Positions 5,745 through 35,055 of a stretch of 35,055 nucleotides of DNA are shown one piece after another. Source of the DNA: a virus; the IMG/VR virus record IMGVR_UViG_3300000944_000003, positions 1 through 35,055 of that record; one strand, 5' to 3'. Made by a program: the position numbers and the translations under genes. The stretch's first letter is position 1; every line of letters begins with the position of its first letter. The notes beneath the pieces were generated by a model, which was not told where the DNA came from, made no database searches, and saw only the letters and a list, made by a program, of their open reading frames with translations.

Positions 5745-5792
5745 CGGCGCAGGTAGTGGTTATATTCGCCAACGCATTTGGAGGATGACGCT

Positions 5793-6395: not shown

Positions 6396-6703
6396 TGGAT
6401 ATAGATAAATCTGATCTGGCTGAATATGCTGTAATGGAAAAAAGGGCAGTCACATTTATGCTTAGCACGATGCTTGAATTTGACGCAGCTTTTGAAGATA
6501 AGATCTTAGGCGATTCGACCCTGGAAAATATGATGAGATCAAAGTCTGTTTTAAAAGACAACCTTGCACCGTTAGTTCCTATTTTTTCTGCTGCATTAAA
6601 GATGAATAAATCTGATATTGATTTCATGATGGAAAAATACGAACCCATAGTTGATAAGATCCTCCTTGAAAGCGAGGAAAATGCAAACCAAACAGTAAAT
6701 TAA
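6392..6703 (+). CDS. Hypothetical protein, 103 aa
   Basis: ATGA overlap with the erf stop. Coding-like acidic, helical composition. No motif recognised. Confidence 0.7.
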   Translation: MMDIDKSDLAEYAVMEKRAVTFMLSTMLEFDAAFEDKILGDSTLENMMRSKSVLKDNLAPLVPIFSAALKMNKSDIDFMMEKYEPIVDKILLESEENANQTVN

Positions 6704-6719
6704 AATAAGGATATGAATC

Positions 6720-8375: not shown

Positions 8376-8743
8376 AATTCAGTTAGTTCATACCTTGTAA
8401 AATCATTTTCAGAGTGAACCTTTATGCCGGTTATCTCAAATATATTTTTATCGTCAATGCCAAGAGCGTCAAGAAAAGAGTCTTCTGAAAATTTCAGATA
8501 GTTACTAACATCGGATTTTCTCGGCGAGCCGGATTTTGTTATCCAGCTTTTTCCAATCCAAATTTTTAGCCTTAGCTTTTTAAGATACAATTTAGATGTA
8601 TCAAAAGCCTTTTGCTGTACGTATATTCTAACATTATTTTTGAACGTTTTGACCGCTTTTGTGGAAAATCGCCTTCCATTTCTACCCCGAGAATATCCTG
8701 CATTCACGCTTGGGCATACAAATGGAACTTCAAGGGTAATCAA
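8372..8743 (-). CDS. rusA: RusA-family Holliday junction resolvase
   Basis: VPFVCPSVNAGYSRGRNGRRFSTKAVKTFKNNV resembles the RusA PPSxNxxY...R...S.E motif. DVSNYLKFSEDSFLDALGIDDKNI resembles the RusA D.DN..K...D.L catalytic acidic cluster. Confidence 0.8.
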   Translation of the reverse strand: MITLEVPFVCPSVNAGYSRGRNGRRFSTKAVKTFKNNVRIYVQQKAFDTSKLYLKKLRLKIWIGKSWITKSGSPRKSDVSNYLKFSEDSFLDALGIDDKNIFEITGIKVHSENDFTRYELTEL

Positions 8744-9291
8744 TCTTTGCGCCTTTGGCCGCCAAGGATTCTATATGACATATATCTTTTGCGGTTTATC
8801 TGATTTGATTGGTTACATCCTAGGGCCCAGAACTTTTTATATAATCCGTTTTTTTGCCTGCCCGATTTTCTGTCAAAGCCTGCGAAATAGGCCACGTGAC
8901 CCTTCGATGATTTCGGATTTGACCGCCAGAGAATTACGATGTCTCCGACCTTTAGATCTTTGGCTTCGACTCTATCGTATCTGGGGTGCGGCTTCAGCCA
9001 GTGCCTAGCACGCTCGAAAATCTTTGGGAGCTCGCGGCGCTGTAAGTATCCAGATTCAGTCTCACCCACACATATGCATAGCGAACACCAAGGCGTTGAC
9101 TTGTCATATTTAGGCCTTCCAAACTCCGCCCATTTCTCTTTAATCCAGGCCTCGTTTTTAGCCTCAGAGAAGCCCTTGTATTTGGCAAGGGCCCTATGGC
9201 CGAGAATCGGTTTTTCGGGCTCAGCAGGGACAACAGGAGCGGCAGGATCTTTAAACATATCGCAGATGTAATTTATAATCTTTGAAAACAT
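8740..9291 (-). CDS. Cell-wall hydrolase, NlpC/P60/CHAP-like (TIGR02594-type phage lysin)
   Basis: STPWCSLCICVGETESGY supplies the catalytic Cys context (PWC). LKVGDIVILWRSNPKSSKGHVAYFAGF supplies the His context. This is the typical TIGR02594 arrangement. Confidence 0.75.
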   Translation of the reverse strand: MFSKIINYICDMFKDPAAPVVPAEPEKPILGHRALAKYKGFSEAKNEAWIKEKWAEFGRPKYDKSTPWCSLCICVGETESGYLQRRELPKIFERARHWLKPHPRYDRVEAKDLKVGDIVILWRSNPKSSKGHVAYFAGFDRKSGRQKNGLYKKFWALGCNQSNQINRKRYMSYRILGGQRRKD

Positions 9292-15055: not shown

Positions 15056-15847
15056 TTATATGTCTGAAATAGTTCCGCCTAAAATGCGAAACGTCAAAGT
15101 TCCCGTTCTAAAATACCCACATCCAAGCGTGCGGATCATTTCAATTAAATTGTATTCTGTCCCATTTCTCGAGCTTTGAGTCGATTCAAGTATAACCTTA
15201 AAATATTCATCTGGCTTATCGCAGTTTGGTATAAGCTCCATTTCGCGTCCGCACATTGCCCAATCTAAAAGATCTCTTATATCGTCTAGTCCACGCGTTG
15301 GCCGAAAGGCCCTGCAGGTTTGTTCGATATTTGTCTGCGCTTTTACCTCAAAGCTTATCGTCGACTCTTTTCCGCAATGAACAATTTCGGTGCATTTGCC
15401 ATCGGAGCTTTCAGATTTTGTCGCCTGCCTGAGTCTTCTGTTCTGGTTTTGAAAGTTCGTCACTGGAAGTTGCGGGTAAAATATTGAGCCGAACCTTTGG
15501 TTAGATCTGTATTCGGACTGGCCCGAAAGATTTTGACCAAGCGTGAACCCGAACATTTCGTATGCTGGCGCTGGCTCTGCTCCAGATCCTGCAAGGATTT
15601 CAAACGCATCGCCCGAAGGCCTAAGAATAGTAAGTACTCTTTTTTCTGAATCGACTGAAAACGAATAGTAAGAGATGTTGTTTGCAAGCGCTATCTTGTT
15701 CATAAGATCTGCTATCTCTGATATGCATATTGGGCCCAAAGGAAACTGTAATACATGTGTGCCATTTTCATCTCTTAAAGTTATCTCTCTTGATTCGGAT
15801 GTAAACTCAAACCCATATCTTATAGCTATTTGAATATCTAAACTCAT
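15056..15847 (-). CDS. Distal tail protein candidate (by position after the tape measure), 263 aa
   Basis: ATGA-type overlap with the tape-measure stop. Positional call only. Confidence 0.55.
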   Translation of the reverse strand: MSLDIQIAIRYGFEFTSESREITLRDENGTHVLQFPLGPICISEIADLMNKIALANNISYYSFSVDSEKRVLTILRPSGDAFEILAGSGAEPAPAYEMFGFTLGQNLSGQSEYRSNQRFGSIFYPQLPVTNFQNQNRRLRQATKSESSDGKCTEIVHCGKESTISFEVKAQTNIEQTCRAFRPTRGLDDIRDLLDWAMCGREMELIPNCDKPDEYFKVILESTQSSRNGTEYNLIEMIRTLGCGYFRTGTLTFRILGGTISDI

Positions 15848-18666
15848 ACTGCCTCTGCTCCGAGAAATCCTGCATTTTCAATAAGCTCAACTATTCTTAA
15901 AGAAGTCTGGTCGCTATCAAGCACATCGCCTTGAATCGTAACCTGAACGTTCGAGCTCCTGGTTCTCTCGAACTCTTCCTCATCATCTGTAACCCCGATA
16001 TCAGAGCTTGTTGTGGATACAGCAGAAGCAGGTGCCGGAGCTGCTGCGGTGGTAGCAGCAGTTGGAATAGGCGCTGATGTGGATCCGGAACTTGATCCTC
16101 CTGCTCTATTACCCAAAGCCCTAAAAGCTATGCCAGCCGCGACAAGGGCCGCACCAGCAACAATTGCTCTGGTCCCGTCGAGCATAAGTACAGCCTCTCT
16201 AACCCTATCTGCTAGAATACCTATCAAGATCGCCTGGGTTCCGAGCTCGATTGAAAAGTCTCCAAATGAAGTAAGGACCGAACCAAGAAAAGCCCTTAAA
16301 GGATTTTGTCCTGCTTCTAAAGCTTGAACCATTGCATTGATTCCGTTTTGAACCGTGTTTGTTATAAGCTGATTGAAGTCGACCCTGAGCTGACGGCCCG
16401 TACTTCTTACTCTATCTCTTAGGCTTGTAAGAGAATTTGAAACCCTAGCGGCTCCAGCTTCCATCGAGACGACAGCCTCATCGAATATACTAGCAGCATT
16501 TTGAATCTCCGTTGAGGCTTGAAGAATTAAATCTCTATTGGCTTCTGCGAACTCAAGGTTTGAAAGTATAAACTGCTGGAATGCAAGCTGAGATCCCATA
16601 AGCTGCGTGGGCTCGACAAGGCTTTGTAGGTTTTCGGTTAACGTTTGAGTCTGGGCCTGGGTAGATACAAGAGCCTGTGAAATAATAAGCCCAGAGTTTG
16701 TCACTGAAGCTGCAGCTGATTCAACTACTGCTTGATTGGATCTAACAAATTCCTGATTCTGGATAACGAATGATCTTAGAGCTTCCTGCTGCTCAGTGAG
16801 ATCTGTCGTCCCTCCGCCGCCACCATCATCATCATCCATGGCGGGAGGATTTTCTGTATCGCCTCCGCCTCCGCCACCGCCGCGAACAATCTCTGGACGA
16901 AGCCTGAGACGTATTTCTCTTTGAGTTTCGCGCCTCAAATCAATTATATTTTGAGTGGCTATCTGAACATTCTCTTCAAATAAAGTAGTATCTATTTGAA
17001 TAGCTACGCCGCCGTTGAAAAACCTGGCTATTGACGATCCTGTAATGAAGTTAGAGAATTCGGCAACCCGCAATAAGGCTGTGTTTACCCCTAAAATGAA
17101 ACCGTTGAAAAGAGAGTCGCCTATTCTCCGCAGGCTTCCAAATGATGTTAGTAGCATGTCGAACAATTCAACCGCGCCTAGTATTGCAACCGAAAGCCCA
17201 AGAGTTAGCGCAGTCTGAGTGAGCGCAATACCAACTCGAAGAGTGGCCAGCCTTGTAGTTACAAGCCCTATGATTATAGGGAGCCCCGATAAAACTGTTC
17301 CAAGAGTCGCAAATGCCGTTGTAAGACCTGTGGCAACCCCAGTTGCAATCAATTGAATATTAAGCAAAACAAATGATCCAGCCGTGATAGCAGCGAATCT
17401 AGCGACGCTTGATAGGATGCTTGGCAGATCTCTTAAAAAACCCACAAGACTAGAAAGACCAGACACCAAGGAAGCGATTATCGGCTGCAGGACTTCGCCA
17501 ATTTCAATGCCTAAATCTCTAAGGTTATTTCTGAAGATCTGCGCCTGCTCGGCAGAGCCCATAAGTTGCTGGTTTAATGCGCCCGAAAATGTTTGAACCG
17601 AAGCCGCATTGTCTCCAAGGTTCTCAGTCGTCTCAACGAGAGATTCAAATTGCGCGTTGGAAAGCGCTGCTATAGATCCAGATGCTCTTACAGAGCCAAA
17701 TAGCTGTGAAAGTGATTCAGCAGTATTACCGCCAGCTTCTCTGAGCTCGTTAATAAACCTTACAAAACCACCTTCTCTTCTGAAGATCTGAGCGTCGAAT
17801 GCGATCCCAAGTCTTTCGGCTTCTCTTCTCGCATCTTCAGTTGGATTTATTATCGCCGCGATCGCAGCCCTTAGACCTGTTGCCGATTCAGATGTGCTTC
17901 GACCAGAGAGCGTTAATGCTGATAATGCAGATAATGTGTCTTCAAGACTTATGCCGACAAGATTAGCATCGGCAGCCACTGTTCCTAAAGAACCTGAAAG
18001 CTCGGCTATCGTTGTCCGGCCTGCTTGCTGAGCTCTAAAAAAAGATGCCGCCGCATTTTCCGCTTGTTCAGCTTCCAAACCGAAAGCATTTAAAGCTGTC
18101 GTAAGTCCCCTTGTAGCAGTGGAGATATCTGTTTGCCCGGCAACCGCAAGTTCGCCTGCAATGCGTACCGTATCTATAGCTCTTGATGCATCAATCCCTG
18201 CGGATACAGTATCGAAAAGTGCGGTGTTAACAGAAGATATTGCAACAGGCAGATCTGTGAATACTTCTCTCACGCCATCTCTTAAACCATCAAAACCCTC
18301 TTGAAGGTTTTGGCCTGTGCTTGCAAAAGAGTTATCGCTTAATAAGGTGCGAACTCCATTAAGCTCAGACTCGAACTCATTGAAAGCTCTCGTAGCGTTG
18401 CCGACACCTCTTACTAAGGCAACCGCCGAAAACGCTCCTGCGAACGCAAGTCCGATGCGTCCGATTTGACTTGTGATGCCGCCAGTAAATCTCGTAAATA
18501 AAGTTGAAGCCTGCTGCGTGCCTCTTCTGGTAGATCCAGATACGCTATCTTCTAATGACTCACCTACGCTTTCGGCCGCATCCGTAGCCCTATCTCTAAA
18601 CTGATCGAACTCTTGGCGTAGATTTCTAAACTCAAGCTCTAAATCTATTTGCAGTCGTTCAGTCAT
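15844..18666 (-). CDS. Tail tape measure protein, 940 aa
   Basis: Long Ala/Leu/Gly/Ser-rich helical protein with a central hydrophobic block (residues about 440-520) and a poly-Gly/Asp linker. It lies immediately downstream of the G/GT chaperone pair. Confidence 0.9.
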   Translation of the reverse strand: MTERLQIDLELEFRNLRQEFDQFRDRATDAAESVGESLEDSVSGSTRRGTQQASTLFTRFTGGITSQIGRIGLAFAGAFSAVALVRGVGNATRAFNEFESELNGVRTLLSDNSFASTGQNLQEGFDGLRDGVREVFTDLPVAISSVNTALFDTVSAGIDASRAIDTVRIAGELAVAGQTDISTATRGLTTALNAFGLEAEQAENAAASFFRAQQAGRTTIAELSGSLGTVAADANLVGISLEDTLSALSALTLSGRSTSESATGLRAAIAAIINPTEDARREAERLGIAFDAQIFRREGGFVRFINELREAGGNTAESLSQLFGSVRASGSIAALSNAQFESLVETTENLGDNAASVQTFSGALNQQLMGSAEQAQIFRNNLRDLGIEIGEVLQPIIASLVSGLSSLVGFLRDLPSILSSVARFAAITAGSFVLLNIQLIATGVATGLTTAFATLGTVLSGLPIIIGLVTTRLATLRVGIALTQTALTLGLSVAILGAVELFDMLLTSFGSLRRIGDSLFNGFILGVNTALLRVAEFSNFITGSSIARFFNGGVAIQIDTTLFEENVQIATQNIIDLRRETQREIRLRLRPEIVRGGGGGGGDTENPPAMDDDDGGGGGTTDLTEQQEALRSFVIQNQEFVRSNQAVVESAAASVTNSGLIISQALVSTQAQTQTLTENLQSLVEPTQLMGSQLAFQQFILSNLEFAEANRDLILQASTEIQNAASIFDEAVVSMEAGAARVSNSLTSLRDRVRSTGRQLRVDFNQLITNTVQNGINAMVQALEAGQNPLRAFLGSVLTSFGDFSIELGTQAILIGILADRVREAVLMLDGTRAIVAGAALVAAGIAFRALGNRAGGSSSGSTSAPIPTAATTAAAPAPASAVSTTSSDIGVTDDEEEFERTRSSNVQVTIQGDVLDSDQTSLRIVELIENAGFLGAEAV

Positions 18667-19282: not shown

Positions 19283-20200
19283 TTAAACTTGGCGTGCGTC
19301 GCCTATGAATAGTACGTTAACTTCCTCAAACTTAGCAAGATCATCTCTCAAAGCTCTGAAGGAAACTGTCATCGCGCAGTTTTCATCACTCGGAAAGTTG
19401 ATGTTTGAAACATTTGGAAAGGTCAAAAGGAAAACCCAGTCTTGGCTTCTGTCTGATGCCGGAACACCGACGGGATGCAAAGTAAGCCTGTTCGAGCGAG
19501 TAAGGGTATTTCTACCGATGCTTGCCGTCCCAAGACCGAAATGCTCTTGGCCATTGATTGTTACAGAATCTCCTGCGCCTTGAGCCAGAAGCTTTCTAAG
19601 GTTAGAAGTATTGACCTGCTTGAACTCGATCTCGATCTCAGGAGATATCCCTGTCTGCGTTTCGCTAATAGGAAGGCTTCCAGTTTGATCGCAAACGACC
19701 TCTTGAGTCGAGACGTTTGTATCAATTGAAAAACCGCCGGACTGAGTTGGCCCAAGGTTCATTGAGAAACCCTCGTGCTCGACGAATGGATCTAAAAGAG
19801 CTAAATCGCTTGATACCGGATCTAATGTCGCCAAGTAATCAACAGTCTTGATTGCGAATGCGCGCTTGATGTTCGGAACTACAACAGCGCAAAAATCAGC
19901 TTCTGCATCAACAGCTGCTGCAACAGCTGCCGAAATTGACTCTGGGATGTCAGTCGATAAGATATCAACTTGGATTCCAGTTCCGCCCGGAGCCGGATCA
20001 ACACTCGCGCCGTCTGTAAGGTTAAACCACAGGTAGTACTGAGCTGCATTACCTGCACTATAAAATTGTATATATTGACTGTCTAAAGCCAGTCCCACTT
20101 GCTCTTCAGGAATTTGAACGCAAAAAGTTTTTAGGTTTTCGCAATAGACCTCGAAATTCTTGGTCTCGATACCTGAAGCTCCTCGGCATGATTCTGCCAT
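19283..20200 (-). CDS. Major tail (tube) protein candidate, 305 aa
   Basis: Position immediately upstream of the chaperone pair. Very strong SD (AAGGAGG). Confidence 0.7.
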   Translation of the reverse strand: MAESCRGASGIETKNFEVYCENLKTFCVQIPEEQVGLALDSQYIQFYSAGNAAQYYLWFNLTDGASVDPAPGGTGIQVDILSTDIPESISAAVAAAVDAEADFCAVVVPNIKRAFAIKTVDYLATLDPVSSDLALLDPFVEHEGFSMNLGPTQSGGFSIDTNVSTQEVVCDQTGSLPISETQTGISPEIEIEFKQVNTSNLRKLLAQGAGDSVTINGQEHFGLGTASIGRNTLTRSNRLTLHPVGVPASDRSQDWVFLLTFPNVSNINFPSDENCAMTVSFRALRDDLAKFEEVNVLFIGDARQV

Positions 20201-20231: not shown

Positions 20232-20696
20232 TTAAGTTCCAGCATTTAAAAGGATCGCCTGAGAAATCGTCATGCCAATGCAAATCTTTACAATGTAATC
20301 ATTTCCGGGGATGGACTCGAGGAACATCCGGTCAAACCTAATATTAGTGAAACATTCTGGCCGAAGCGATTCATCTAGTAAAACCGTCAGAATACCTTCG
20401 CCCTCAATTAGCGCCCGCTCTTGCGTATCTACCTCAAGCTTTCCAGCCATGTGGTAGAGGCAAAGCTCTACATCTGTAGACACCCTTAGACAATTTCCCT
20501 CGCGCCCATTCGAGGAAACAACGCCAAGGCGTATATAGTAACTATCATTCACTTGCGATCTTTTAAGCCTATCGTCGAATGAAAAGTTATATGGAAGCTC
20601 TCTTTTTCTCCCGCAAGGCTCGATAAGAGAGGAGATGCTTTCTCTGATCTGAGAGAATGTACCGCACCCAAATTTTAACACAGGAAGCCTACTCAT
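20232..20696 (-). CDS. Hypothetical structural protein (tail terminator/completion by position), 154 aa
   Basis: ATGA overlap with the upstream gene. Positional call only. Confidence 0.55.
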   Translation of the reverse strand: MSRLPVLKFGCGTFSQIRESISSLIEPCGRKRELPYNFSFDDRLKRSQVNDSYYIRLGVVSSNGREGNCLRVSTDVELCLYHMAGKLEVDTQERALIEGEGILTVLLDESLRPECFTNIRFDRMFLESIPGNDYIVKICIGMTISQAILLNAGT

Positions 20697-21382
20697 TTAC
20701 GCACTAACCTGTTTGTTGAAATCTTGTATTCATGACGCGATATCTTACCGTCGCCATCCTTATCAAAAAAGATTTTATATCCGCCGAAAGCCTTAACCCT
20801 CTTGCTTTTATAAAACTGAGAACGCTGAGCCCAGAAGTCCTCCGGAGATTTAGATGCGTTTCGATAAATGTTTTCAAGCGCCCAAAATGTAGACCATTTT
20901 CGCAGTTGCTCTGATCCTTTCAGCTTTGCAATATCAATTAGCTCACATCCGTGCCAAAGAAGACCTTCGTCCCTTAAGCATTCGTAAATGCACTTGGCTA
21001 TCTGCCTGTGGATATGATTGAAATTACATCGATGACAATCAAGACAATCGCGAATAGATGGCTCAAACCCAAGCAGATCAGAGTCGTCAGAAAATAAACA
21101 ATCGTCTTGCTCATCTTTAACCTCGATGGTTTCGGCGAAAATCTCAGAGGCCGCACCTGCAGTTACGCGAAGCTGGATCGTAAATGTTCCTGATGCAGAG
21201 TATTGCCAATCTAAAAACAAATCAGATGAAACATCGAAGTATGTTCCAGACCCGTCAGGATCGACCTCAACCAAAGATATTGCATCCATGTCGGGTGTTA
21301 CACTGTTTCTAGATGCGTCGATTCGAAGCCTATCTCCGACTCTTACGCATGCATCTGTGAGAATACATCCAAAGATTGCCAT
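20693..21382 (-). CDS. Multi-domain structural-module protein: Ig/PKD-like N-domain, Cys/His cluster, canonical C-terminal EF-hand, 229 aa
   Basis: RIDASRNSV...VEVDPDGSGTYFDV...WQYSASGTFTIQLRVT is PKD-like. CLDCHRCNFNHIHRQIAKCIYEC is a Cys/His cluster. DKDGDGKISRHE (20729-20764) fits the 12-residue EF-hand loop DxDxDGxIxxxE exactly. Confidence 0.7.
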   Translation of the reverse strand: MAIFGCILTDACVRVGDRLRIDASRNSVTPDMDAISLVEVDPDGSGTYFDVSSDLFLDWQYSASGTFTIQLRVTAGAASEIFAETIEVKDEQDDCLFSDDSDLLGFEPSIRDCLDCHRCNFNHIHRQIAKCIYECLRDEGLLWHGCELIDIAKLKGSEQLRKWSTFWALENIYRNASKSPEDFWAQRSQFYKSKRVKAFGGYKIFFDKDGDGKISRHEYKISTNRLVRK

Positions 21383-22383
21383 TACTCAAACACTCCCTTA
21401 GCCCAGTCGGTTTGGTGCGCCTTTATAATCTCATGGACGCCTTCAATGTTTGCGCCCATTTCAGATAAAATTTTTGGTAGTACAATTGAGATGGCTCTTT
21501 CCCCTGCAGCCAAACCAAACAAGTCATCACTTCTATAATGAACACCGCCAAAATCACGACCAACCGCGACATTGTATGCAGCCTTTCGCATTTGGCGAAA
21601 ACCCTCTTCGTCTAGTTCAAACCAAACTGCAAACAAAAGATGCTTTGAAGCAACGCTTGAATGCATCGCTGGAAATGATGGATGAGGCGGAGCCTTGTAA
21701 ACTCCGAAGGCACTTTGATCTTTTGCAACAGCGTCCTTGTCTATTAACTTTGAAAGGGCCAGATCAATTCCATCAGGAGCTTTGATCTCGCCTTTGGCCC
21801 AAAGGTGGGCTGCCTCCTCAGGACGAAGCCTTCCGTGATACCACTTGTGGGCAAACATGGTCGGAGATATTTGATGGATCAGTTGACCGATGACGCTTGC
21901 AAGTCCTACGACGCCATCAGTAAAAGGCGTCCAATCGCCAATTCCAAACAGGTCCCTTTGTTTATAGCCTTTTGATAAAAGCCAGCCTGCCATCTTGTTC
22001 ATGATGTCTGTAGGCCAGTCAGCTTCTACAAGCTTTGCTAGATCGTGGGCTGTCGATACATTGTATGCAGACTTTATAGGTTCCGCAACGAACTCTGTAT
22101 CTCCTTCGAAAATATGCTCGGGCCATAACTTTGAGAGCTGGTCCTTAGGAACTCTTGAAAATGGCGTTTTCTTTTTTGCCATATCAACACGGTAGGCGAC
22201 CTCTAAAAGCTCATCCCAAAAAGGTGCGCCGTCTTCCGGGTGCGCCGGCTTCGGTCCTTTTGAAGGTAAAAACAAAAGCCTTGAGTCATCTTCCATAATG
22301 CAGCTGTGAAGCTTCTGACAGTCGCCTGAAGCGCGCTGCTGCTTTGAAAGAGGATAGTCTATTTTTCCAAGCTTAAAACGCAT
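21382..22383 (-). CDS. PAP2-superfamily enzyme, vanadium-haloperoxidase/acid-phosphatase-like, 333 aa
   Basis: All three PAP2 motifs occur in order. KWYHGRLRP gives K-x6-RP (K180, R187). HPSFPAMHSS is a PSGH-type motif with Ala-Met replacing Ser-Gly (H241). GRDFGGVHYRSDD gives R-x5-H-x3-D (R276, H282, D286). The last resembles the haloperoxidase-branch R...GVHW/Y/F R.D signature. TAATG 1-nt overlaps join it to both flanking genes. Confidence 0.8.
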   Translation of the reverse strand: MRFKLGKIDYPLSKQQRASGDCQKLHSCIMEDDSRLLFLPSKGPKPAHPEDGAPFWDELLEVAYRVDMAKKKTPFSRVPKDQLSKLWPEHIFEGDTEFVAEPIKSAYNVSTAHDLAKLVEADWPTDIMNKMAGWLLSKGYKQRDLFGIGDWTPFTDGVVGLASVIGQLIHQISPTMFAHKWYHGRLRPEEAAHLWAKGEIKAPDGIDLALSKLIDKDAVAKDQSAFGVYKAPPHPSFPAMHSSVASKHLLFAVWFELDEEGFRQMRKAAYNVAVGRDFGGVHYRSDDLFGLAAGERAISIVLPKILSEMGANIEGVHEIIKAHQTDWAKGVFE

Positions 22384-22994
22384 TAAGAAAGCCTTTTCAT
22401 TATTAAACCGCCGGCGTCCCCAGCCAGGTTTACAGTCCCTGCGTTAGCGCCTCGCTGGGAGCTCACGCCAATGACATCGCCTTCTGATACTTTTAAAATC
22501 TCAGTCAAATGCGCCGTCGAATTGTTATGGCCGAAGTTTGAGCTTATATATGAGTTTCTAGATCTTGCCCTTTGCCTTACTCCATTTAAGGTAATGTGCA
22601 CCTGCGGAGAATATGGATCAGGGCCTGGTGTCCAAAACTCCGGCTGTGCGGTGACTTCAACGTGGCCGTTAAAGGCCACCCTTATACCGTCAACTGCAAG
22701 CTCGAAATCAGTTTGGCCATCGAGCTCTGAAAGGAACTGATCGTAGACCAGAAGCTGGGTTGGATTATCCTGGTTTACATTTGACGCTCCATTAAACCCA
22801 GTCGAAACAAAACCCATTGGTGCTGGCGGAGGCGGCGGCATAGCCGAACCATCTTCTTCAACTTCCATTGCAAGACCAGGAACCGGAGGCTGCGATTCCG
22901 CAGATGCCCCAAGTATATTCCCAGCTTCGCTGCCTTCCCGTGCAAAGACGACAGTCCCATCGTCATGTTCATAAGCTATATAATTTATTGGCAT
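22383..22994 (-). CDS. Hypothetical structural protein with Pro-rich linker and beta-rich C-terminal domain (possibly C1q/TNF-like jelly roll), 203 aa
   Basis: PPVPGL...MPPPPPAPMG linker. The C-terminus (LNGVRQRARS...AHLTEILKVSEGDVIGVSS) resembles the C1q-like strand pattern, but this is a weak, by-eye call. Confidence 0.6.
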   Translation of the reverse strand: MPINYIAYEHDDGTVVFAREGSEAGNILGASAESQPPVPGLAMEVEEDGSAMPPPPPAPMGFVSTGFNGASNVNQDNPTQLLVYDQFLSELDGQTDFELAVDGIRVAFNGHVEVTAQPEFWTPGPDPYSPQVHITLNGVRQRARSRNSYISSNFGHNNSTAHLTEILKVSEGDVIGVSSQRGANAGTVNLAGDAGGLIMKRLS

Positions 22995-23003
22995 AGTTCC
23001 CCC

Positions 23004-26000
23004 TTAAAGGACATCGTCTAAAACAACAAACATTGAAACCCTGGCATCTGAATAGGCTCCAACCTCCGTACCTGTTCTCAGTCTTATATCTGCTCCAGCG
23101 CCAACCTCGATTGGAGTGGCGAATTCAAACACGCCTGTTTGGCCAGTAAAACTTCCAGTCCCAATCACATTAGAGTTGTTTTCTAAAATCTCGATCGTGA
23201 CGCTCGTTCCAGCTGTTTCAGACTGGAAAGTCATGTATTTAATTCGTCCGTCTTTTGGAATTACAACGCCGGTATTACCAGTAGACCCGTTACCTATTGA
23301 CCACTGATTAGATCCGTTTGCAAGGCCGCCGTTTTCCTCCCAGTTGAAGCTTACGAGCGAGCTACCTAGAGAGGCTATGGCAGCCGCATTGGCAGCGATA
23401 TTGGATGCGTTCGTCGAAAGCTGAGCGTCGTGGCTGCCGACAATGTTTCCTATCTCAGTGACGTTGCTTGTATTTAGCGCTGTCGCAGAAGCATTCGCTA
23501 CAGTCGCTGCAAGGTTTGCTGCAATCGCAGTGTTTTGAGTGGCTTGCTCAGGGAACAATATTGCTAGGTTATCAGTATTTGCCGTGGTGTCAGTTATGAC
23601 CTGGGCTAAATCCGCACCACCAGATCCTACCGGCTTAGCACCGAGGTAAAGCATCCCATCAGCTGGGTTGACCCAAGTTGTTTTTGCGAAGTCGTTTCCA
23701 TTATCTTCAATATAAGCCTGTGCAGAAGCCACATCAGAAAACCTGCCCTTGTCATCATATACAACAGAATCAGGATCTAAGATCCCATCAATATCTACGT
23801 TTCCTAAAAATGTCGCGACCTTTGATCCTGATCCTCCAAACACGGCTCCAGTCTCGCGGTCATCTTCAAAGTTCCAGCCTATGCAAGCTTCATAAGTATA
23901 TGAGATTGTATGCGAGTCAGTTATCGAGCTTCCACCGGAGAATACACCTATATAGTAAGTGCCAGGCGTTAGCTGCACTGAGTATGTCCTTGAAGGTTCT
24001 GCTGTCGTTATCCTTTGGTCTAGGTTAAATGTATTAAAAATATCTGCATTAGCGACACCTTGGGCATCATTGAGAGCAAGCTGAATAGTAGATATTCCGA
24101 ACCCAGCTGTTCCTATAACGTTTAGACCAGTATGAACAAACGTGTATTCAGAGGGCTCAAGGACCTCAATACTGCCAAGCTGAAAAGCCGATACTCCTGC
24201 CGCACCTGTGTTTATAGTTTGACCGCCGGTTAGCTCTCCGGGAATGCTTGCGGTTGTCTTAAGCAGAGGAAGGCCGTCTGTGCCAATAATTAGTTTTTGG
24301 CATATGTCCGTTGAAACCCTTGCAGGGCTGCTTGGCTCATGATCACAAACCCTTGTAACACCTGAAGGAGTGTAAGGTGTAACGTTATCTGTTTCAAAGT
24401 CTTCGCTTGTAACAACGCCGCCTGATTTTGAATAGTTCGTAACATAAAACACGTTTGTGCTAAGTACGAAAGTGTTTGCAGTTATATCCCTGCTTGAAAT
24501 CCCACCCACGGAAACATCGATAAGACGAATCTCAACGTCACCTTCTGCGAAGAAATCAGATACAAATGTCTGAGTGCCAATGGCAGCGTGAACCGCATTT
24601 CTTTCGTCTACAAGTGTGTTTCCGCTTGTAACATCAGTTATGACAAGTCTTGTCGCACTGCCAATACCTGTGTTTCCAATGATGCTAGATCTATAACTAA
24701 AACTCGATTGCCCTTGAACAGACTCTACAATGGAAACTAAACCACCTGAAAACGCTCCGCCGCCGCCGAAAACAAACCCGCCGCCGCTAAAGCCAACAGA
24801 TCCTTCGGTTGCATCCAATGTAAAATCGCCTGCGGCAATATTTCTAGGCACTAAATCACAACGCTTTTCCTGCCAAGTTTCAGTCTGTGAATCTTCTGCG
24901 CAAGGATAGTTAAGATCAAGCTCAATAACATCTAAAAAGCCCTGATCCGCTGCGCCGCCAGCTGTTGCTGCTGGAAAAATTGACCAGCTTAAAGATCCAG
25001 GAGCCGGGGCAAATTCAGCCACAAAACAAATTGTACTATCTGTAACATAAACCGAGCGAACAGTTACCTGTGTCCCGGTTCCGAAAAATGTGAACGTGCC
25101 ATCGCTTGCGTCCATGCGTAGATCAGAGACGACCCCAGGTGAATTTGCAAGCCGTAGGATCAGACCCTGAGAAACTTGTTTTCTTACAAACTTCATTTTT
25201 ACGCATTGAGGCAAAGTCGTAGGTAGCATTGCGTCTAATACGTAAGAACTAAATCCACCGGTCGCATCTTCAAGCCGAGCAGCTGTATATCCGTCTTGAT
25301 CAATCTGGACAACTGGGGTTGCGCCGCTTGCCAAGGCATATTGATCAAGCTGTTTGAAAATATCATTTGTATCTTCTGCAAGGTCTTGAGGCCCACAATA
25401 CGTTGAAGTTATTGTAAGGTTATCACCTGACTGGCGAGTAAACGTATATACGCATCCAGCGTCAAGCGTGATAGAGCCGAAGACATCAATACCATCAATA
25501 AAATTGGCTGTGGCGTAGTTTAAGGTCAAAGCATGATTGTTGCTTGTTCCAACGTTATCAAAGATTACCCTATCTCCGGGTGTTAAAGATCCAACGGATA
25601 AGTCAAAGGTTGCAGGGCCTGCGGTGTGAGCGTTCCTGTAATAAGTATCTGCAGAAAGCTCAATGGTTGCCGTCGCAGTTGATATATCAAGATGATCCCA
25701 GCTTAGGTCACGGCCATGGTCTCTGGCAGTGATTTTAATGCCAGTTCCAGATTCCCTTGAAAATGTATAAATGCATCCAGGCTCTAAAACTAAAGTTCCT
25801 GGAGTAGCTGTACCGTCTATAAACTCGCCGGTCGCATCAATGTAATTTACCGTAAGATCACCAACGGATGAATGTCCGTTTTCAATGATGAAGCGATCGC
25901 CGGGCAAAAGACTTCCAAGTGTTAAATCATAGGTTGCGCCTGTAGCAGCAGTTATGTTCCGATACATGTGATCGGGTTGGAGTGAAATTGTTTCAGCTGC

Positions 26001-26066
26001 GCTTTGAGTGTTGACATGCGTCCAGCTTGAGCTGACGCCAGGCCTTGTAAATGAATGTTTAGCCAT
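23004..26066 (-). CDS. Large fibre/decoration-like structural protein with a tandemly duplicated N-terminal domain, 1020 aa
   Basis: Residues 14-121 and 122-225 are clear paralogous repeats (SWTHVN...LEPGCIYTFSRESG and SWDHLD...LDAGCVYTFTRQSG). There is an Ala/Asn-rich coiled segment (AANLAATVANASATALNTSNV...) and a beta-rich C-terminal domain. Confidence 0.8.
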   Translation of the reverse strand: MAKHSFTRPGVSSSWTHVNTQSAAETISLQPDHMYRNITAATGATYDLTLGSLLPGDRFIIENGHSSVGDLTVNYIDATGEFIDGTATPGTLVLEPGCIYTFSRESGTGIKITARDHGRDLSWDHLDISTATATIELSADTYYRNAHTAGPATFDLSVGSLTPGDRVIFDNVGTSNNHALTLNYATANFIDGIDVFGSITLDAGCVYTFTRQSGDNLTITSTYCGPQDLAEDTNDIFKQLDQYALASGATPVVQIDQDGYTAARLEDATGGFSSYVLDAMLPTTLPQCVKMKFVRKQVSQGLILRLANSPGVVSDLRMDASDGTFTFFGTGTQVTVRSVYVTDSTICFVAEFAPAPGSLSWSIFPAATAGGAADQGFLDVIELDLNYPCAEDSQTETWQEKRCDLVPRNIAAGDFTLDATEGSVGFSGGGFVFGGGGAFSGGLVSIVESVQGQSSFSYRSSIIGNTGIGSATRLVITDVTSGNTLVDERNAVHAAIGTQTFVSDFFAEGDVEIRLIDVSVGGISSRDITANTFVLSTNVFYVTNYSKSGGVVTSEDFETDNVTPYTPSGVTRVCDHEPSSPARVSTDICQKLIIGTDGLPLLKTTASIPGELTGGQTINTGAAGVSAFQLGSIEVLEPSEYTFVHTGLNVIGTAGFGISTIQLALNDAQGVANADIFNTFNLDQRITTAEPSRTYSVQLTPGTYYIGVFSGGSSITDSHTISYTYEACIGWNFEDDRETGAVFGGSGSKVATFLGNVDIDGILDPDSVVYDDKGRFSDVASAQAYIEDNGNDFAKTTWVNPADGMLYLGAKPVGSGGADLAQVITDTTANTDNLAILFPEQATQNTAIAANLAATVANASATALNTSNVTEIGNIVGSHDAQLSTNASNIAANAAAIASLGSSLVSFNWEENGGLANGSNQWSIGNGSTGNTGVVIPKDGRIKYMTFQSETAGTSVTIEILENNSNVIGTGSFTGQTGVFEFATPIEVGAGADIRLRTGTEVGAYSDARVSMFVVLDDVL

Positions 26067-26949: not shown

Positions 26950-27840
26950 CTATCTTACTAGTTTTGCGGTTCTGATACCTTCACAGATTGTGCGGAATCC
27001 GTAACCCATACAAAGCGAAACTTCTTTGCATGCAAGTTTAGGCATATCGGATTCTAATACCATCACGCCCGTTTGAGTTGCAAACTTCAAAGAAGATTTG
27101 TGAAGCAAAGTAAGTGTTCCTGGTGTTGCGAGAGTCGTCCAAATGACTGGGCTTCCCATAATCATTCCGACTACGCCGGTTCTAAAAGTAGAAGTAGCAT
27201 CGCCGGTGACGTTTGCATCTTTGATGCATTTGAGCGCGTGGATGTCTTTAAGATCGTTCGGGTGAACAACAAGGCATCTTTCAGTTTCAGGAATGTTTCT
27301 CGCGTTAAGAGCCGTATGAAGACAAATAAGATCGCCTTCTGAGATTGTACCCGCGCCGCCGATTGGAGCTAGAATGTTAGCTGGATCAACATCTGCTTCA
27401 AGAGCTGTGATTAGATCGCGCTCAACCTGGCGAGTGATTGCCTCAGAAGCTTTTTGTAGAACAACTGATTCAACTCCCAAAACACTTTGGGTGATATCAC
27501 AAGGATCGTAGCTAAAGCCTGCGACTGCTTTGCAGTTAAGCTCTAGAACGTCTTGAGTGATTGTCAGGTTTTGGCAAACGATAGGTGTTCCGTTTGGATC
27601 AACCGTGCCATCTGCAGTAGCTCCAGGAACAGTGACCGGATAAGTTTGTTTCTGTAAATCGAAGTCCTCGACTTTATTAAACGCAATTGATTTCATTCCG
27701 GGACCGACCAATGCAGATACGTCGTCAACTAATGGAACGATCTTGCCGATTTCAGTGAAGTTATCAAGAATGATTGCACTGACAAGCTCTTGGCGAGTGA
27801 TGTCGATGCTAGTGGTATTTACCTTGCCAACGTTGGCCAT
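26950..27840 (-). CDS. Major capsid protein candidate, 296 aa
   Basis: Follows the scaffold gene, has SD GAGGGAG and is followed by a strong terminator. Positional call only. Confidence 0.7.
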   Translation of the reverse strand: MANVGKVNTTSIDITRQELVSAIILDNFTEIGKIVPLVDDVSALVGPGMKSIAFNKVEDFDLQKQTYPVTVPGATADGTVDPNGTPIVCQNLTITQDVLELNCKAVAGFSYDPCDITQSVLGVESVVLQKASEAITRQVERDLITALEADVDPANILAPIGGAGTISEGDLICLHTALNARNIPETERCLVVHPNDLKDIHALKCIKDANVTGDATSTFRTGVVGMIMGSPVIWTTLATPGTLTLLHKSSLKFATQTGVMVLESDMPKLACKEVSLCMGYGFRTICEGIRTAKLVR

Positions 27841-29116: not shown

Positions 29117-29657
29117 GGAAGTTTATGAAATCAAAAGCCTGCTGCAGGGTCTGCCCAGCCTGGCCATCGGCGGCGTTATCAACAGCGCCGGAAAGAGATG
29201 GCCCTACCAAATCTCTAAACTCACCAGTTATCTCCCTAAGCTCGGTATCTGTCAGATACATAAACTCCCTTTGGGGCGGCCCCCCTGAAAAATCGGAGTC
29301 ATGCCCATGAGCTTTGGTGCGGTTGGCCTGCGTGGTGAATCCGATTCGTATGGTCTGGTTTGATGAGTCGATTACAGCTAGCTCTCTCATCATCGAGTTT
29401 GTCAGGCGAAGGTTTACTGGGTTTGATTTCTGGGGGTTTGCAGCAAGGTATTCCGGCGAGTACGTGTTGCTTCCTACATTGAATATTCCTTCTGCGGTGC
29501 GGTCTCTTATGGTCGCGACAATGCTGTCACCAATTGCTTCACGGGCAACCGATGATACAACACTTCGACCAAACATAGTCTCGAGGTTCACATCCATGAA
29601 CACATCGAACTGACTATCGTTATAGGTCTTCTGGATTACTTCCGCTGCTGTCGGCAT
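29094..29657 (-). CDS. Head-module protein, paralog pair member A (minor head/connector candidate), 187 aa
   Basis: SD AGGGGA is present. The start overlaps the portal 3-prime end by 38 nt. VNLRLTNSMMRELAV...IRIGF...AHGH parallels SNLTETGQLLDSLTF...LAIFF...VYGH in the next ORF. Confidence 0.55.
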   Translation of the reverse strand: MPTAAEVIQKTYNDSQFDVFMDVNLETMFGRSVVSSVAREAIGDSIVATIRDRTAEGIFNVGSNTYSPEYLAANPQKSNPVNLRLTNSMMRELAVIDSSNQTIRIGFTTQANRTKAHGHDSDFSGGPPQREFMYLTDTELREITGEFRDLVGPSLSGAVDNAADGQAGQTLQQAFDFINFLGTFFDG

Positions 29658-31056
29658 CCATGTCCCCTAAGTTGCCAAGTATCTCTGCTGCTTGTTCTTC
29701 AGATACGCCCCGATCGAGCATGATGGCCTCAAGCCTACTTATAAGACCAAGGCCGAGCTTTTGGCTTATAAGCGCTATCTTCTCGGCTTCTGTCTGGATC
29801 ATCTCAGGCTTTGAAAACTGGATGCTGAACATCACATCTTCTGATATGGATCCGCCATTTATATCCGGATCTGTTCCGATTCTATTTTGAAGATCATTTG
29901 ACCAGTCGCGAAGAAGCGAGAAGGCTTCTCTTTCAACAGCCCTAAAGGTTGCAATTGAATCTCTTGAAGCTTCAAACCTTTCAACGCCCGCGAGAAGGCG
30001 GTCAAGGCCAGAGGTAAAACGAGATGCCGCACCATTAGTTGAAATGGTTTCAGGAGAGATATTGAGGCTTGAAAGAAACATCGAAAGCATCTTCTCTAAA
30101 AGAGATATCGAGCTTCCAAGATCAGGATTTGCATTAGCGAAGCTAAAGCTAGGCTGCACGGTTGAGTTTGGATCCAAAGGAAGATGGATGTAACTTGTAG
30201 GGCCTATGACAAGATCAGATGGCTTTTCCTCTGAGGCTAGAACGGCCTGAGCATACCCTTGGTTTTTTGAGATATCTGCAACGTCACATAGACAAAGTAG
30301 GAACTCTTTTGAAAACTCGGCCACAACGCTTGGGCAATCAACCCAATATTCGAGATCTTTTTCCTGCGATATTTCAACGAACGGCAAGCGGCGTATTGGG
30401 TTTTCAACGGTATCGCCTATAACCGCACCATTTTCATTGGTGACAAATATCTGATCTTCAGTCCAGAAGTGGTACTCGTAATCGCCTTTGTTTGATATCG
30501 CCGTCTCAAGCTTTATCGTCCCATCGAATACGCCAGATCCTGACTTGCTCTTTTTAAACATCCGAACAAATGCAATGGGAGTTTCCTGGTCCTCTTCGCT
30601 GCAAACCACGTCGTATTGGTGCGGTGCAAGCACTCTGGTCTTTAGCTCACCATTTTTAGGATAAATCTGAAGTGCAGCTTGGCCGAGAAGGTTATAAAGC
30701 CTGTTTGCTTTTTTAAGTGATACGTCAAGCATTGAGCGGTCGTAGACCATATCAAGCTGTTCTAGCTCTCTTTCATCTGCCCCAACAAACTGCCTTTCGG
30801 GCTCGTTCATGTAAACGGTGCTGATCGCAGAGATGATCTTAGGCGTTAGGTTAACCGAGAATATATGGCGCTTTCTTTTTAAAGTCTCAACGTCCCAGCC
30901 GTATTCTTCGCACATTGCGTCCCATACGTGGCCCTTGTGTTTGTTGCGGTAGAAGTCGAATGCATATAATGAGCGGCGCTTGCGGGCCCTGTTTTCTTTT
31001 GAATGGATATGATCTATGAAAGCCCGGCGGCCTTCGGCGGTGCTGATATCTGGCAT
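29620..31056 (-). CDS. Portal protein candidate, 478 aa
   Basis: Size and position immediately downstream of TerL. Acidic C-terminus. No motif independently recognised. Confidence 0.75.
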   Translation of the reverse strand: MPDISTAEGRRAFIDHIHSKENRARKRRSLYAFDFYRNKHKGHVWDAMCEEYGWDVETLKRKRHIFSVNLTPKIISAISTVYMNEPERQFVGADERELEQLDMVYDRSMLDVSLKKANRLYNLLGQAALQIYPKNGELKTRVLAPHQYDVVCSEEDQETPIAFVRMFKKSKSGSGVFDGTIKLETAISNKGDYEYHFWTEDQIFVTNENGAVIGDTVENPIRRLPFVEISQEKDLEYWVDCPSVVAEFSKEFLLCLCDVADISKNQGYAQAVLASEEKPSDLVIGPTSYIHLPLDPNSTVQPSFSFANANPDLGSSISLLEKMLSMFLSSLNISPETISTNGAASRFTSGLDRLLAGVERFEASRDSIATFRAVEREAFSLLRDWSNDLQNRIGTDPDINGGSISEDVMFSIQFSKPEMIQTEAEKIALISQKLGLGLISRLEAIMLDRGVSEEQAAEILGNLGDMDADSSGSNPEDL

Positions 31057-31065
31057 TGGTTTAAC

Positions 31066-32355
31066 TTAACGCCTCCCTTGGCTGATTGATTTTTTCCTTG
31101 TGGATAAGTCCTTTTGAAACAGCGAATACCCAAGGCTGGTCGTAACGTGCTGCGCATGATAACTGTCGTCTTCCACGAAGTTTGCGCCTGCCTTTAGTTT
31201 TGTGTGTCTTAGTCCGTCAATAATTGTACTGCAATTTGATGAAACTTTTAAGCGTACATCGCCGTTGGCGTTCTTAAGGTACGCATTTACGATATTGTGA
31301 CGAAGCCTGATTGCAGGGTTTTTAGGCGGAACCATTATTCTAAATGGTATAGGAATGTCCAAGTTACTTATGCGATATTTGATAATATCTAGATCTGAGC
31401 GAACGCCGCGAGTATCGCGGGAGGATCCAGTAGCATCAGCACAAATATAAACAGGAGACGACGTGGAGAAATAACCACGGTGCTCAATCTCGTCCAAAAC
31501 GTCATTGGTTCTCATCCCCTCTAAAATAATCTCATCGAAGTAATATGCGGTGCCATCGACGAACTGAGATATGCAGCAGCTCATTGGTTTTCCGGTTCCA
31601 ATGTTAAAGTCAAAGCTTATATATATTGGAGCTCTTGGCTTCGGGTCATATGATTCAATAATGTTGTCGTCTGAAAACTGATAATAAATTACATTTTCTG
31701 CAATTGATAACCATTCTCCTTCGAGCATCCTTCGAGCCATCAAAGGATCCATGGTCGCCCTGAGGTTAGACTCATAGCTATCGGGCAGAAGTTTATTGTC
31801 TCTTGTCTTTGAGTAAAATACTTTTGAGCCAGGTGCGGGGTTTCCGATGAATTCTTTATATACCCAATGGTCAGGCGATTCTGGATTCGATGCGCAAAGA
31901 AGCCAAGATTCATCGACATCTGACCTTCTTCCAAGGCGCATAAATATTTCATTGTATGCTTCTGGAGTCTGTGACTCAGTTAATTCGTCGATAGCAAAAG
32001 CAGTAAATTGGTAGGATCGAAATTTCCGTACCGATCCATCGGACCACGAAAAAGCCATTATTTGAGATCCATTTGGAAATGTGATTGTCGACGTGCTCTT
32101 GTTGAACTTGATATCAATAATATCGCCAACCTGCTCAATGATGGCTTTCAAGAGAGTATCTTTAAGATATCGAAGCGATAAACGACCAATGCCAACCAAA
32201 GCATTCGGATACATCAAGCAATGTGTGACTACGGCATGTGCAACTACAATTGTTTTTCCAGATCCAACCGCACCAGACAATAATATCTTCTTGGGACCAG
32301 ATTTATATGATCCTGTCCTTATATGCTTTAATACTTGTAATTGGTATGGAACCAA
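31066..32355 (-). CDS. terL: Terminase large subunit
   Basis: Walker A LLSGAVGSGKT (residues about 25-35). Walker B/coupling FAIDELTE. C-terminal RNaseH-like nuclease acidic motifs (ISFDFN, ICADATGSSRD). The only canonical start upstream of Walker A is TTG at 32355, and it has no SD. Confidence 0.9.
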   Translation of the reverse strand: MVPYQLQVLKHIRTGSYKSGPKKILLSGAVGSGKTIVVAHAVVTHCLMYPNALVGIGRLSLRYLKDTLLKAIIEQVGDIIDIKFNKSTSTITFPNGSQIMAFSWSDGSVRKFRSYQFTAFAIDELTESQTPEAYNEIFMRLGRRSDVDESWLLCASNPESPDHWVYKEFIGNPAPGSKVFYSKTRDNKLLPDSYESNLRATMDPLMARRMLEGEWLSIAENVIYYQFSDDNIIESYDPKPRAPIYISFDFNIGTGKPMSCCISQFVDGTAYYFDEIILEGMRTNDVLDEIEHRGYFSTSSPVYICADATGSSRDTRGVRSDLDIIKYRISNLDIPIPFRIMVPPKNPAIRLRHNIVNAYLKNANGDVRLKVSSNCSTIIDGLRHTKLKAGANFVEDDSYHAQHVTTSLGYSLFQKDLSTRKKSISQGRR

Positions 32356-34790: not shown

Positions 34791-35035
34791 TTAGATTTTA
34801 GATCTGACTGAGGCTTTGGTTTTGGACCGGGCTTTGCTTTGGCCTTGGGTTTGGATTTAAGGCTATCTTGGCACTCTCTGAGCTTTAGGATGAGTTCTGC
34901 GAGCTTAAATACCTTGTCGATGTTTCGGCCATGGATGGCGTCTTTTAGCATCGCCTGGCCATATGTGTATGGCTGAAAGCTATTTAGCTCGGCCATTGGC
35001 ATTACAAGTAGTTTGGTCATTAGATCAACATCCAT
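34787..35035 (-). CDS. Hypothetical protein with Lys/Pro-rich tail, 82 aa; start lies inside the terminal repeat
   Basis: ATGA overlap with the ParB-like gene. ATG at 35033-35035 corresponds to positions 27-29 of the left repeat copy. SD AAGGG is found at 36-40 after circularisation. Confidence 0.6.
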   Translation of the reverse strand: MDVDLMTKLLVMPMAELNSFQPYTYGQAMLKDAIHGRNIDKVFKLAELILKLRECQDSLKSKPKAKAKPGPKPKPQSDLKSK

Positions 35036-35055
35036 GAATTAACCCTTTATTATTA
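35007..35055. repeat. Direct terminal repeat, right copy (49 bp, identical to 1..49)
   Basis: Exact identity to bases 1-49. Confidence 0.95.

Follow-up and report, generated by a model that had tools for sequence, protein, structure and literature searches.

The window analysed here is the IMG/VR virus record IMGVR_UViG_3300000944_000003 in its whole length of 35,055 nucleotides. It is a complete phage genome of about 35.0 kb, assembled as a circle and with an exact overlap of 49 bp between its two ends (positions 1-49 and 35007-35055). A single long late operon runs on the minus strand, in which the terminase gene is followed by genes for the portal, a scaffold-like protein and the capsid, by genes for proteins of 265, 1020 and 203 amino acids (aa), by an open reading frame (ORF) of 333 aa, by genes for proteins of 229, 154 and 305 aa, and then by the tape measure gene (Table 1). 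The 333-aa ORF, which is the subject of this work, starts with ATG and codes for a protein of 37 kDa. It carries the motifs of PAP2 enzymes in order, with motifs 1 and 3 intact and motif 2 retaining its histidine but reading PAMH. Motif 2 aligned to the HPSYGAGH of the vanadium bromoperoxidase (VBPO) from Acaryochloris marina, and motif 3 is the stretch that aligned best to motif 3 of the VBPOs.

This protein retains all the catalytic residues needed for a covalent histidine-oxyanion intermediate (Lys180, Arg187, Arg276, His241, His282 and Asp286). Lys180, Arg187 and Arg276 are predicted to bind the oxyanion, His241 would act as the acid/base, His282 as the nucleophile or ligand and Asp286 as a relay. 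Five of the seven residues of the vanadate-binding set (Lys/Arg/Ser/Gly/His/Arg/His) are kept, with Ser replaced by Ala and Gly by Met; the first of these replacements is also natural in the bona fide VBPO of A. marina. The N-terminus is not hydrophobic and no transmembrane segment was found, the Kyte-Doolittle mean over 19 residues peaking at 1.37. A purine-rich AAAAGG lies about 9 nt 5' of the enzyme start and AAGGGAG precedes the next gene, both Shine-Dalgarno-like. The GC content of the gene, overall and at third codon positions (GC3), equals that of its neighbours, and a scan for promoters and terminators around it gave nothing above background and no autonomous signals of the moron type. 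An earlier reading of this DNA, made from its letters alone and called below the sequence-only reading, had proposed the three motifs in order, the absence of membrane segments and the one-base TAATG overlaps on both sides of the gene; all three points were confirmed, the minus strand being absent from that reading.

Table 1 Features of the window, and lysin homologues in three other contigs (E, E-value; TMt, TM-score relative to the target)
Feature	Positions	Strand	Remarks
Terminase	31066-32355	(-)	first in the late operon
Portal	29620-31056	(-)	
Scaffold-like gene	between portal and major capsid protein	(-)	
Major capsid protein	26950-27840	(-)	
265-aa gene	between major capsid protein and 1020-aa gene	(-)	
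1020-aa protein	23004..26066	(-)	fibre-like in the sequence-only reading; variable cargo region, capsid to connector genes
203-aa fibre-tip-like protein	22383..22994	(-)	upstream of the enzyme; phrog_28263 tail fibre C-terminus, E 2e-6
TAATG overlap with the 203-aa gene	22381-22385	(-)	one-base stop/start overlap, read from the sequence
Enzyme ORF, 333 aa	21382..22383	(-)	
Motif 1, KWYHGRLRP	21820-21846	(-)	K180-x6-R187-P188; predicted oxyanion-binding Lys and Arg
Motif 2, HPSFPAMH	21661-21684	(-)	H234 to H241; His241 is the PSGH histidine, A239-M240 in place of Ser-Gly
Motif 3, RDFGGVHYRSD	21526-21558	(-)	R276-x5-H282-x3-D286; His282 is the predicted phospho- or vanadyl-histidine
TAATG overlap with the 229-aa gene	21380-21384	(-)	one-base stop/start overlap, read from the sequence
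229-aa protein	20693..21382	(-)	PKD/Ig-like and helical domains, EF-hand loop; AlphaFold2 pLDDT 85; Foldseek collagenase PKD, TMt 0.84
154-aa protein	20232..20696	(-)	connector or tail-completion by position; syntenic homologues in L001 and L003
305-aa Ig-domain protein	19283..20200	(-)	major-tail-protein position; phrog_2175, E 1e-13
Tape measure	15844-18666	(-)	chaperone-size ORFs between it and the 305-aa gene
183-aa putative lysin	8740..9291	(-)	CHAP/TIGR02594-like; TIGR02594 E 1.8e-5, below cutoff; WC...GH pair conserved
ERF recombinase and SSB	5778-7136	(+)	opposite to the late operon
FAD-like ORF, 430 aa	3420-4712	(-)	TTG start
HNH + NUMOD4/NUMOD1 homing endonuclease	2880-3410	(-)	directly downstream of the FAD-like ORF
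Peptidase_S8 protease, 371 aa	707-1822	(-)	subtilisin family, E 1.8e-33
Lysin homologue, L005	11451-11897		
Lysin homologue, L019	2922-3485		
Lysin homologue, L023	10872-11399		

We investigated the superfamily assignment by profile and structure searches. The Pfam PAP2 profile (PF01569) matched the protein with an E-value of 2.3e-5 and 24.6 bits, against a gathering score of 27.2; this score is exceeded by the homologues P0003 (28.4), P0004 (28.9) and P0008 (32.4). The single sequence, searched against PDB sequences, matched VBPOs only and weakly, and a family profile built from 122 relatives matched VBPOs only, with E-values from 1.3e-16 to 8e-14; acid phosphatases were absent at E<=0.01. 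The NCBIfam scan gave no match for the enzyme. The AlphaFold2 model of the protein (pLDDT 79.6, pTM 0.81) was searched with Foldseek, which placed the VBPOs of A. marina, Corallina and A. nodosum on top (E 7e-5 to 1e-3, probability 1.0); the superposition on the A. nodosum enzyme 1QI9 had a TM-score relative to the query (TMq) of 0.54 over 395 columns. Class A acid phosphatases cover the C-terminal bundle only (Foldseek probability 0.8-0.99, TMt ~0.5-0.62). The model thus shows the ORF product as a soluble helical protein of two bundles with the predicted PAP2 / vanadium-haloperoxidase fold. Both the architecture of two four-helix bundles and a detectable sequence homology to vanadium haloperoxidases are present, and the traits of class A acid phosphatases (about 25 kDa, a single bundle, periplasmic location, signal peptide) are not those of the phage protein. 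The membership in the PAP2 superfamily asserted in the sequence-only reading, and its placing of the protein nearer to soluble haloperoxidases than to membrane lipid phosphatases or class A acid phosphatases, hold in these profile and structure searches. It had also named a structural superposition as a check, and this matched VBPOs over both bundles and class A acid phosphatases over one.

A word-indexed search returned five close homologues only, and an exhaustive profile search was used for the family size, which came to 1065, 298 and 92 cluster representatives at E<=1e-3, 1e-10 and 1e-30, respectively. Motif 2 could be read in 140 of the best 150 matches and ends in A-M-H in 134 of them. 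In the alignment of the 122 sequences, relatives at about 25-40% identity, no variation was seen at K180, R187, P188, P232, H234, H241 and R276, and A239, M240, H282 and D286 are each kept in at least 90% of the sequences, so that the Lys, Arg and His residues, whose conservation the sequence-only reading had named as a check, are invariant or nearly so. The family signature is KWxxGRxRP ... FTAYxEGxPxHPSxPAMH ... RxxAGVHYxxD. Farther matches of the canonical VBPO-like kind, 450-614 aa long, have K-x7-RP with HPSYP[SA]GH or HPSYGAGH. Because these canonical relatives show K-x7-RP and SGH or AGH instead, the PAMH proteins form, by their sequences, a discrete, large and uncharacterised sister family of the VBPOs. 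At their predicted anion-binding site two changes go together: motif 1 is shorter by one residue, and Gly is replaced by Met. The sequence-only reading had noted Ala-Met in place of Ser-Gly, which is indeed present; it is, however, no local peculiarity but the signature of a large family with eukaryotic and myxobacterial members. The A-M substitution was also considered as a sign of a degenerate or inactive copy, and this was rejected, A-M being the conserved state of the family.

Three groups were distinguished within the family, all sharing the N-terminal core motif [LFMV]RFxK...[YF]P[LV]. The first holds diatom and other eukaryotic members, which have signal peptides together with binding domains (hemopexin, PAN, ricin-B or others); the second holds members from metagenome-assembled genomes (MAGs) of marine Myxococcota and Bdellovibrionales with long low-complexity N-terminal leaders, one relative having RTX repeats; the third is a leaderless clade of 320-355 aa, which in a neighbour-joining tree contains every copy found in phage context. 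The phage protein starts exactly at the family-wide core motif (MRFKLGKIDYPLS; MRFK...YPL) and ends at the core end. Because it begins right at this motif, it appears to be a bare catalytic core, without an export signal or an extra or anchoring domain. Fusions were seen in P0151 (956 aa), P0029 (679), P0096 (695), P0066 (699) and P0128 (722); the partner types, as a set, are a PP-binding carrier protein with an Abhydrolase_2 phospholipase/carboxylesterase, RTX, ricin-B, PAN, hemopexin and also DUF5050. Such fusions would point to exported, surface- or glycan-targeted enzymes, possibly with a lipid or natural-product chemistry. The labelled family members are largely marine (diatoms, Tara samples, marine Myxococcota MAGs). 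At ten Myxococcota/Bdellovibrionales MAG loci no conserved neighbours were found, hence no functional clue.

We found the gene also in other phage contigs, designated here by L numbers. In L001/L002 (enzyme 39% identical) and L003/L004 (52%) it occupies the same slot and is followed by homologues of the 229-, 154- and 305-aa genes, which have diverged to a similar degree as the enzyme (26-37% identity in L001 and 55-58% in L003). Because the gene order is kept, the neighbours are similarly diverged and the GC and GC3 match, the enzyme gene is old and stably inherited in the phage lineage of the window. The gene directly upstream of the enzyme is unrelated from phage to phage, the 203-aa protein of the window not being homologous to its counterparts in L001 and L003. 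A sister lineage (L027/L028, contigs of 34.6 kb) has homologues of the portal (32% identity), the 229-aa protein (37%) and the tail tube (31%), and also of the capsid and distal-tail genes, with no copy of the enzyme (tblastn E>3). Its slot between the capsid and the 229-aa homologue is filled by different genes, for proteins of 70, 100, 144, 126, 489, 132, 424, 229 and 72 aa, which marks the 265/1020/203/enzyme slot as a hypervariable cargo region of the late operon. Because this sister lineage has the flanking homologues without the enzyme, the comparison of gene content shows the enzyme in a variable slot and, as it appears, dispensable for building this type of virion, that is, an accessory late gene and not a proven virion component. 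The same comparison bears on the idea that a PAP2-fold protein without catalytic activity has been recruited as a structural subunit, for connection or decoration. The ORF is located where head-tail connector genes usually stand, and no small connector genes were recognised in the window; however, the six catalytic residues are invariant or nearly so in relatives at 25-40% identity, non-phage ones included, and the gene is absent from the sister lineage, which makes this idea extremely unlikely.

The surroundings of the gene in more distant phages differ. It stands alone at a module boundary in L019, beside DUF669 and small ORFs, and in L024, beside RusA and an opposite-strand tail-completion gene. 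In L023, a phage with ERF and SSB where the gene is likewise at a module boundary, it comes after an SLT endolysin encoded two genes upstream (PDB 6ta9, E 4e-26). In L005, a viral contig of 81 kb, it lies between astacin-like and CHAP-like ORFs, and in L026, a phage of 132 kb, inside a long same-strand operon with proteins of 1191, 449 and 982 aa and an amidase three genes downstream (E 4e-16). Homologues of the 183-aa lysin of the window are found within about 1.5 kb of the enzyme in L005/L031, L019 and L023; the CHAP-like call in L005 was unconfirmed against PDB sequences and was later backed by homology to the TIGR02594-like ORF of the window. This recurrent lysin neighbourhood is suggestive, the loci being few and a statistical enrichment not established. 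Motif scans of metagenomes and IMG/VR gave few loci, mostly duplicates, with L005 and L026 as the two distinct IMG/VR contigs. Pfam and PHROG scans of the neighbours in L005 and L026 were mostly empty, and the 217- and 148-aa neighbours in L005 have no detectable relation to the 229- and 154-aa genes of the window.

The position in the late operon had led the sequence-only reading from co-expression with virion genes to a plausibly virion-borne enzyme. This step is weakened by the bare core, by the absence from the sister lineage and by the non-structural sites beside lysis-type genes, and we regard a virion-borne enzyme as rather unlikely. More specifically, the protein could be a component of the neck or fibres that modifies or dephosphorylates a receptor, the capsule or lipopolysaccharide (LPS) for adsorption or penetration at entry. 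The TAATG coupling to the fibre-tip-like gene on the 5' side and to the PKD-domain gene on the 3' side fits with this, as do the slot kept down to 39% identity, the long operon of L026 with its large proteins and amidase, and the lectin-fused cellular relatives, which suggest a surface-targeted action. A structural or anchoring domain is missing from the phage protein, though, the sister lineage has the same connector and tail genes without the enzyme, and the gene stands alone at module boundaries in L019, L023 and L024; an entry enzyme is, on this evidence, unlikely.

We favour instead an accessory PAP2-fold enzyme with envelope-phosphate chemistry, a reading to which, as a whole, we give a probability of about 0.5. 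The enzyme would be made late and in the cytoplasm, because the phage clade is without leader or anchor domain while the cellular relatives are exported. It would reach its substrate when holin and lysin open the envelope or by exit from the cell with the virions, and opening at lysis or such a departure is the most likely route. For the reaction itself, PAP2-type hydrolysis of an envelope phosphomonoester or pyrophosphate stands at somewhat less than an even chance. The substrate could be a phosphate of lipid A or the LPS core, an intermediate linked to undecaprenyl-(pyro)phosphate, or a phosphate of the teichoic or capsule type; the reaction would pass through a phospho-His282 intermediate, with the leaving group protonated by His241, and the enzyme would serve as an accessory to envelope breakdown. 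A phosphatase is ranked above vanadate-dependent halide oxidation, tentatively, because of the link to wall hydrolases, the phosphate-rich cytoplasm, the loss of the conserved Gly and the oxidisable Met in the active site. The chemistry cannot be read from the sequence, as the same residue set fits a phosphatase and a haloperoxidase: the K/R/H/R/H/D set reportedly serves phosphoryl-histidine hydrolysis and vanadate binding alike (the Hemrika/Neuwald relationship), and apo-haloperoxidases possess phosphatase activity.

Several observations weigh against an envelope phosphatase. The solved relatives reached by sequence searches are all haloperoxidases, and VBPO-type features are kept, namely an extra histidine, H234, in HPSxP and the EGSPxHPSY block; H234 presumably corresponds to the second active-site histidine of the algal VBPOs. 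The mostly marine origin of the labelled members fits a chemistry of vanadate and bromide, and catalysis of the acid-phosphatase type is disfavoured at the pH of seawater. The vicinity of lysins may be incidental, lysis cassettes being known hot spots for unrelated accessory genes, and two of the lysin calls are weak (CHAP with E 3e-3, TIGR02594 below its cutoff). In the window 12 kb separate the enzyme gene from the putative lysin, and its neighbours code for virion proteins of the fibre-like and PKD-domain kinds, a position that fits a virion-borne role equally well.

The main alternative is a working vanadium-dependent haloperoxidase, which would act after release into water that contains vanadate and bromide, free or on the virion. 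In such an enzyme, vanadate on His282 would be turned into peroxo-vanadate by hydrogen peroxide (H2O2) and would oxidise bromide or iodide to hypohalous acid, which would harm the cell surface or competitors; alternatively, signalling molecules would be halogenated. Sequence profile and fold search both lead to VBPOs, the architecture of two bundles is shared with the A. nodosum enzyme (TMq 0.54), the HPSxP..H and EGSP blocks are kept, the A. marina VBPO has Ala at the Ser position as well, and the relatives are exported and, where labelled, largely marine. However, the Gly before the catalytic His, universally conserved elsewhere, is Met in the PAMH family, motif 1 lacks one residue compared with that of the VBPO-like relatives, and the protein is made in a cytoplasm rich in phosphate and poor in vanadate. 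A thioether beside a site forming hypobromous acid is readily oxidised, and ambient H2O2 is far under the usual Km values. A source of H2O2 could in principle be the FAD-like ORF of this phage, with a remote FAD-binding domain of the VAO/GULO type, a very weak argument: its matches to Pfam FAD_binding_4 (E 1.4e-4) and to TIGR01679 'FAD-linked oxidoreductase' (E 4.9e-6) are both far under the curated cutoffs, and no homologue of it was found in the stretches examined around the enzyme gene in other phage contigs. All in all, we consider a haloperoxidase somewhat unlikely. The VAO/GULO-type FAD gene is an odd content for a small siphovirus-like genome and could yield H2O2 if the protein is an oxidase.

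A wider possibility, which we consider quite unlikely, is that PAMH stands for a new catalytic class, either a haloperoxidase working with vanadium or another oxyanion and having a Met-modified anion loop, or an enzyme of new chemistry, used as an extracellular surface weapon by diatoms, predatory Myxococcota and phages. The enzyme of the window would then be on or with the virion and would make hypohalous acid or strip key phosphates from the host surface. If true, a 'chemical warhead', oxidative or phosphatase, would be described for the first time in a tailed phage, and the finding could identify the genes behind the extracellular haloperoxidase activity of diatoms. A cytoplasmic phosphatase unconnected with the envelope, which in a metabolic or counter-defence role would dephosphorylate nucleotides or alarmones, scavenge phosphate or destroy a phosphorylated immune signal, is very unlikely in our view. 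The protein is soluble and leaderless, the gene behaves as an accessory one with varying positions among phages, and a leaderless bacterial copy adjoins a prolyl-tRNA synthetase gene (L016); on the other hand, expression from the late operon fits counter-defence poorly, the other members of the family are equipped for export and for targeting to surfaces, and the recurring neighbours are wall hydrolases and not genes of nucleotide metabolism.

Among the flanking genes, the 203-aa and 229-aa neighbours look like surface-exposed virion proteins. The position between fibre-like and tail genes given in the sequence-only reading is borne out by the fibre PHROG of the 203-aa protein and by the tail genes downstream; the fibre label of the 1020-aa protein is unconfirmed, this protein having no PHROG match at E<=0.01, no significant Pfam match and none in GenBank phages. 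It has two tandem repeats of about 95 aa at its start (roughly aa 25-115 and 135-225) and an Ala/Asn-rich stretch near aa 800-900, ahead of the C-terminal region, and no similarity was found between it and the 203-aa protein. In the AlphaFold2 model of the 229-aa protein, the PKD/Ig-like sandwich is the N-terminal domain. Its canonical Ca2+-binding EF-hand loop, predicted from the sequence (FDKDGDGKISRHE, aa 206-218), has D207, G210, D211, G212 and E218 invariant in 8 homologues. An EF-hand is unusual in a protein of the head-tail region; C6, C12, C95, C116 and C119 are among several cysteine residues conserved in an alignment of three sequences. The 154-aa protein had no family match in Pfam, PHROG and NCBIfam-type scans.

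The phage itself is distant from the cultured ones: its TerL is at most 28% identical to that of any GenBank phage, Pelagibacter phages being ranked at the top, and its portal had no match among GenBank phages. No tRNAs were found in the window. Over 110 aa, the SSB shares 45% identity with an ORF of a Myxococcota MAG contig (L014), which also bears a PAMH-family gene; this likeness is the sole hint of a host, and a weak one. The gene of the subtilisin-family protease lies at the distal genome end, far from the head module, so that its product is probably not the prohead protease.

No homologue of the enzyme was found in 50,697 GenBank phage records (tblastn, INPHARED) or in PHROGs, BFVD held giant-virus PAP2 proteins and no tailed-phage protein matching its structure, and a literature search returned no report of phage-encoded haloperoxidase-like or PAP2 virion enzymes, in agreement with the sequence-only reading, which recognised neither proposed activity as a described tail-associated one. 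The fold and the catalytic machinery are known; the uncharacterised subfamily, the altered anion loop and the use in tailed phages are new. A large and apparently unstudied sister family of the VBPOs, spread over diatoms, marine Myxococcota and phages, has a chemistry that is testable with one recombinant protein, and the recurrence of its leaderless phage clade next to lysins and within late operons suggests a novel type of accessory enzyme that acts on the envelope or outside the cell. A phosphatase would be a new enzyme type in the lysis or entry toolkit of phages, and a haloperoxidase would have a bearing on marine halogen cycling and on the interactions between phages and host signals.

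Compared with known systems, the membrane PAP2 lipid phosphatases (PgpB, LpxE/LpxF, LPP family) share the superfamily and its catalytic motifs (PF01569) with the phage enzyme; their substrates, phospholipids of the envelope, undecaprenyl pyrophosphate and lipid A, are of the sort considered above for it. They have six transmembrane helices where the phage protein has none, and their Foldseek match is marginal (human LPP1, E 0.75). The mycobacteriophage LysB offers an analogy, being late, leaderless, dispensable, encoded beside the endolysin and directed at an envelope layer other than peptidoglycan; it is, however, a cutinase-like esterase of unrelated fold and chemistry, and the enzyme gene of the window is outside the lysis cassette, so that the likeness is one of analogy only. 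The class A acid phosphatases (E. blattae 1D2T/1IW8, PhoC, PhoN, P. aeruginosa 7F18) share the three-motif histidine-phosphatase machinery and K-x6-RP. They are periplasmic single-bundle proteins of about 210-230 aa with a signal peptide and PSGH, without a sequence match at E<=0.01, whereas the phage enzyme possesses an additional bundle at its N-terminus, reads PAMH and lacks a leader. The giant-virus PAP2 proteins of Yasminevirus (A0A5K0U6L7) and Hokovirus (A0A1V0SGK0), the best BFVD matches (E 8e-6, TMq 0.61), are soluble and similar to vanadium haloperoxidases as well, but they belong to viruses of eukaryotes, are 485-637 aa long and are 15-18% identical. The VBPOs (A. marina 5LPC/8Q21, Ascophyllum nodosum 1QI9, Corallina 1UP8/1QHB) share with the phage enzyme the helical architecture of two bundles, the active-site Lys, Arg, His...His, Arg and His-x3-Asp, and the EGSPxHPSY and RPE blocks. 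They differ from it by an identity of about 17-21%, by a length of 556-666 aa compared to 333 aa, and by K-x7-RP and a Gly before the catalytic His, where the phage enzyme has K-x6-RP and Met, together with Ala in place of Ser.

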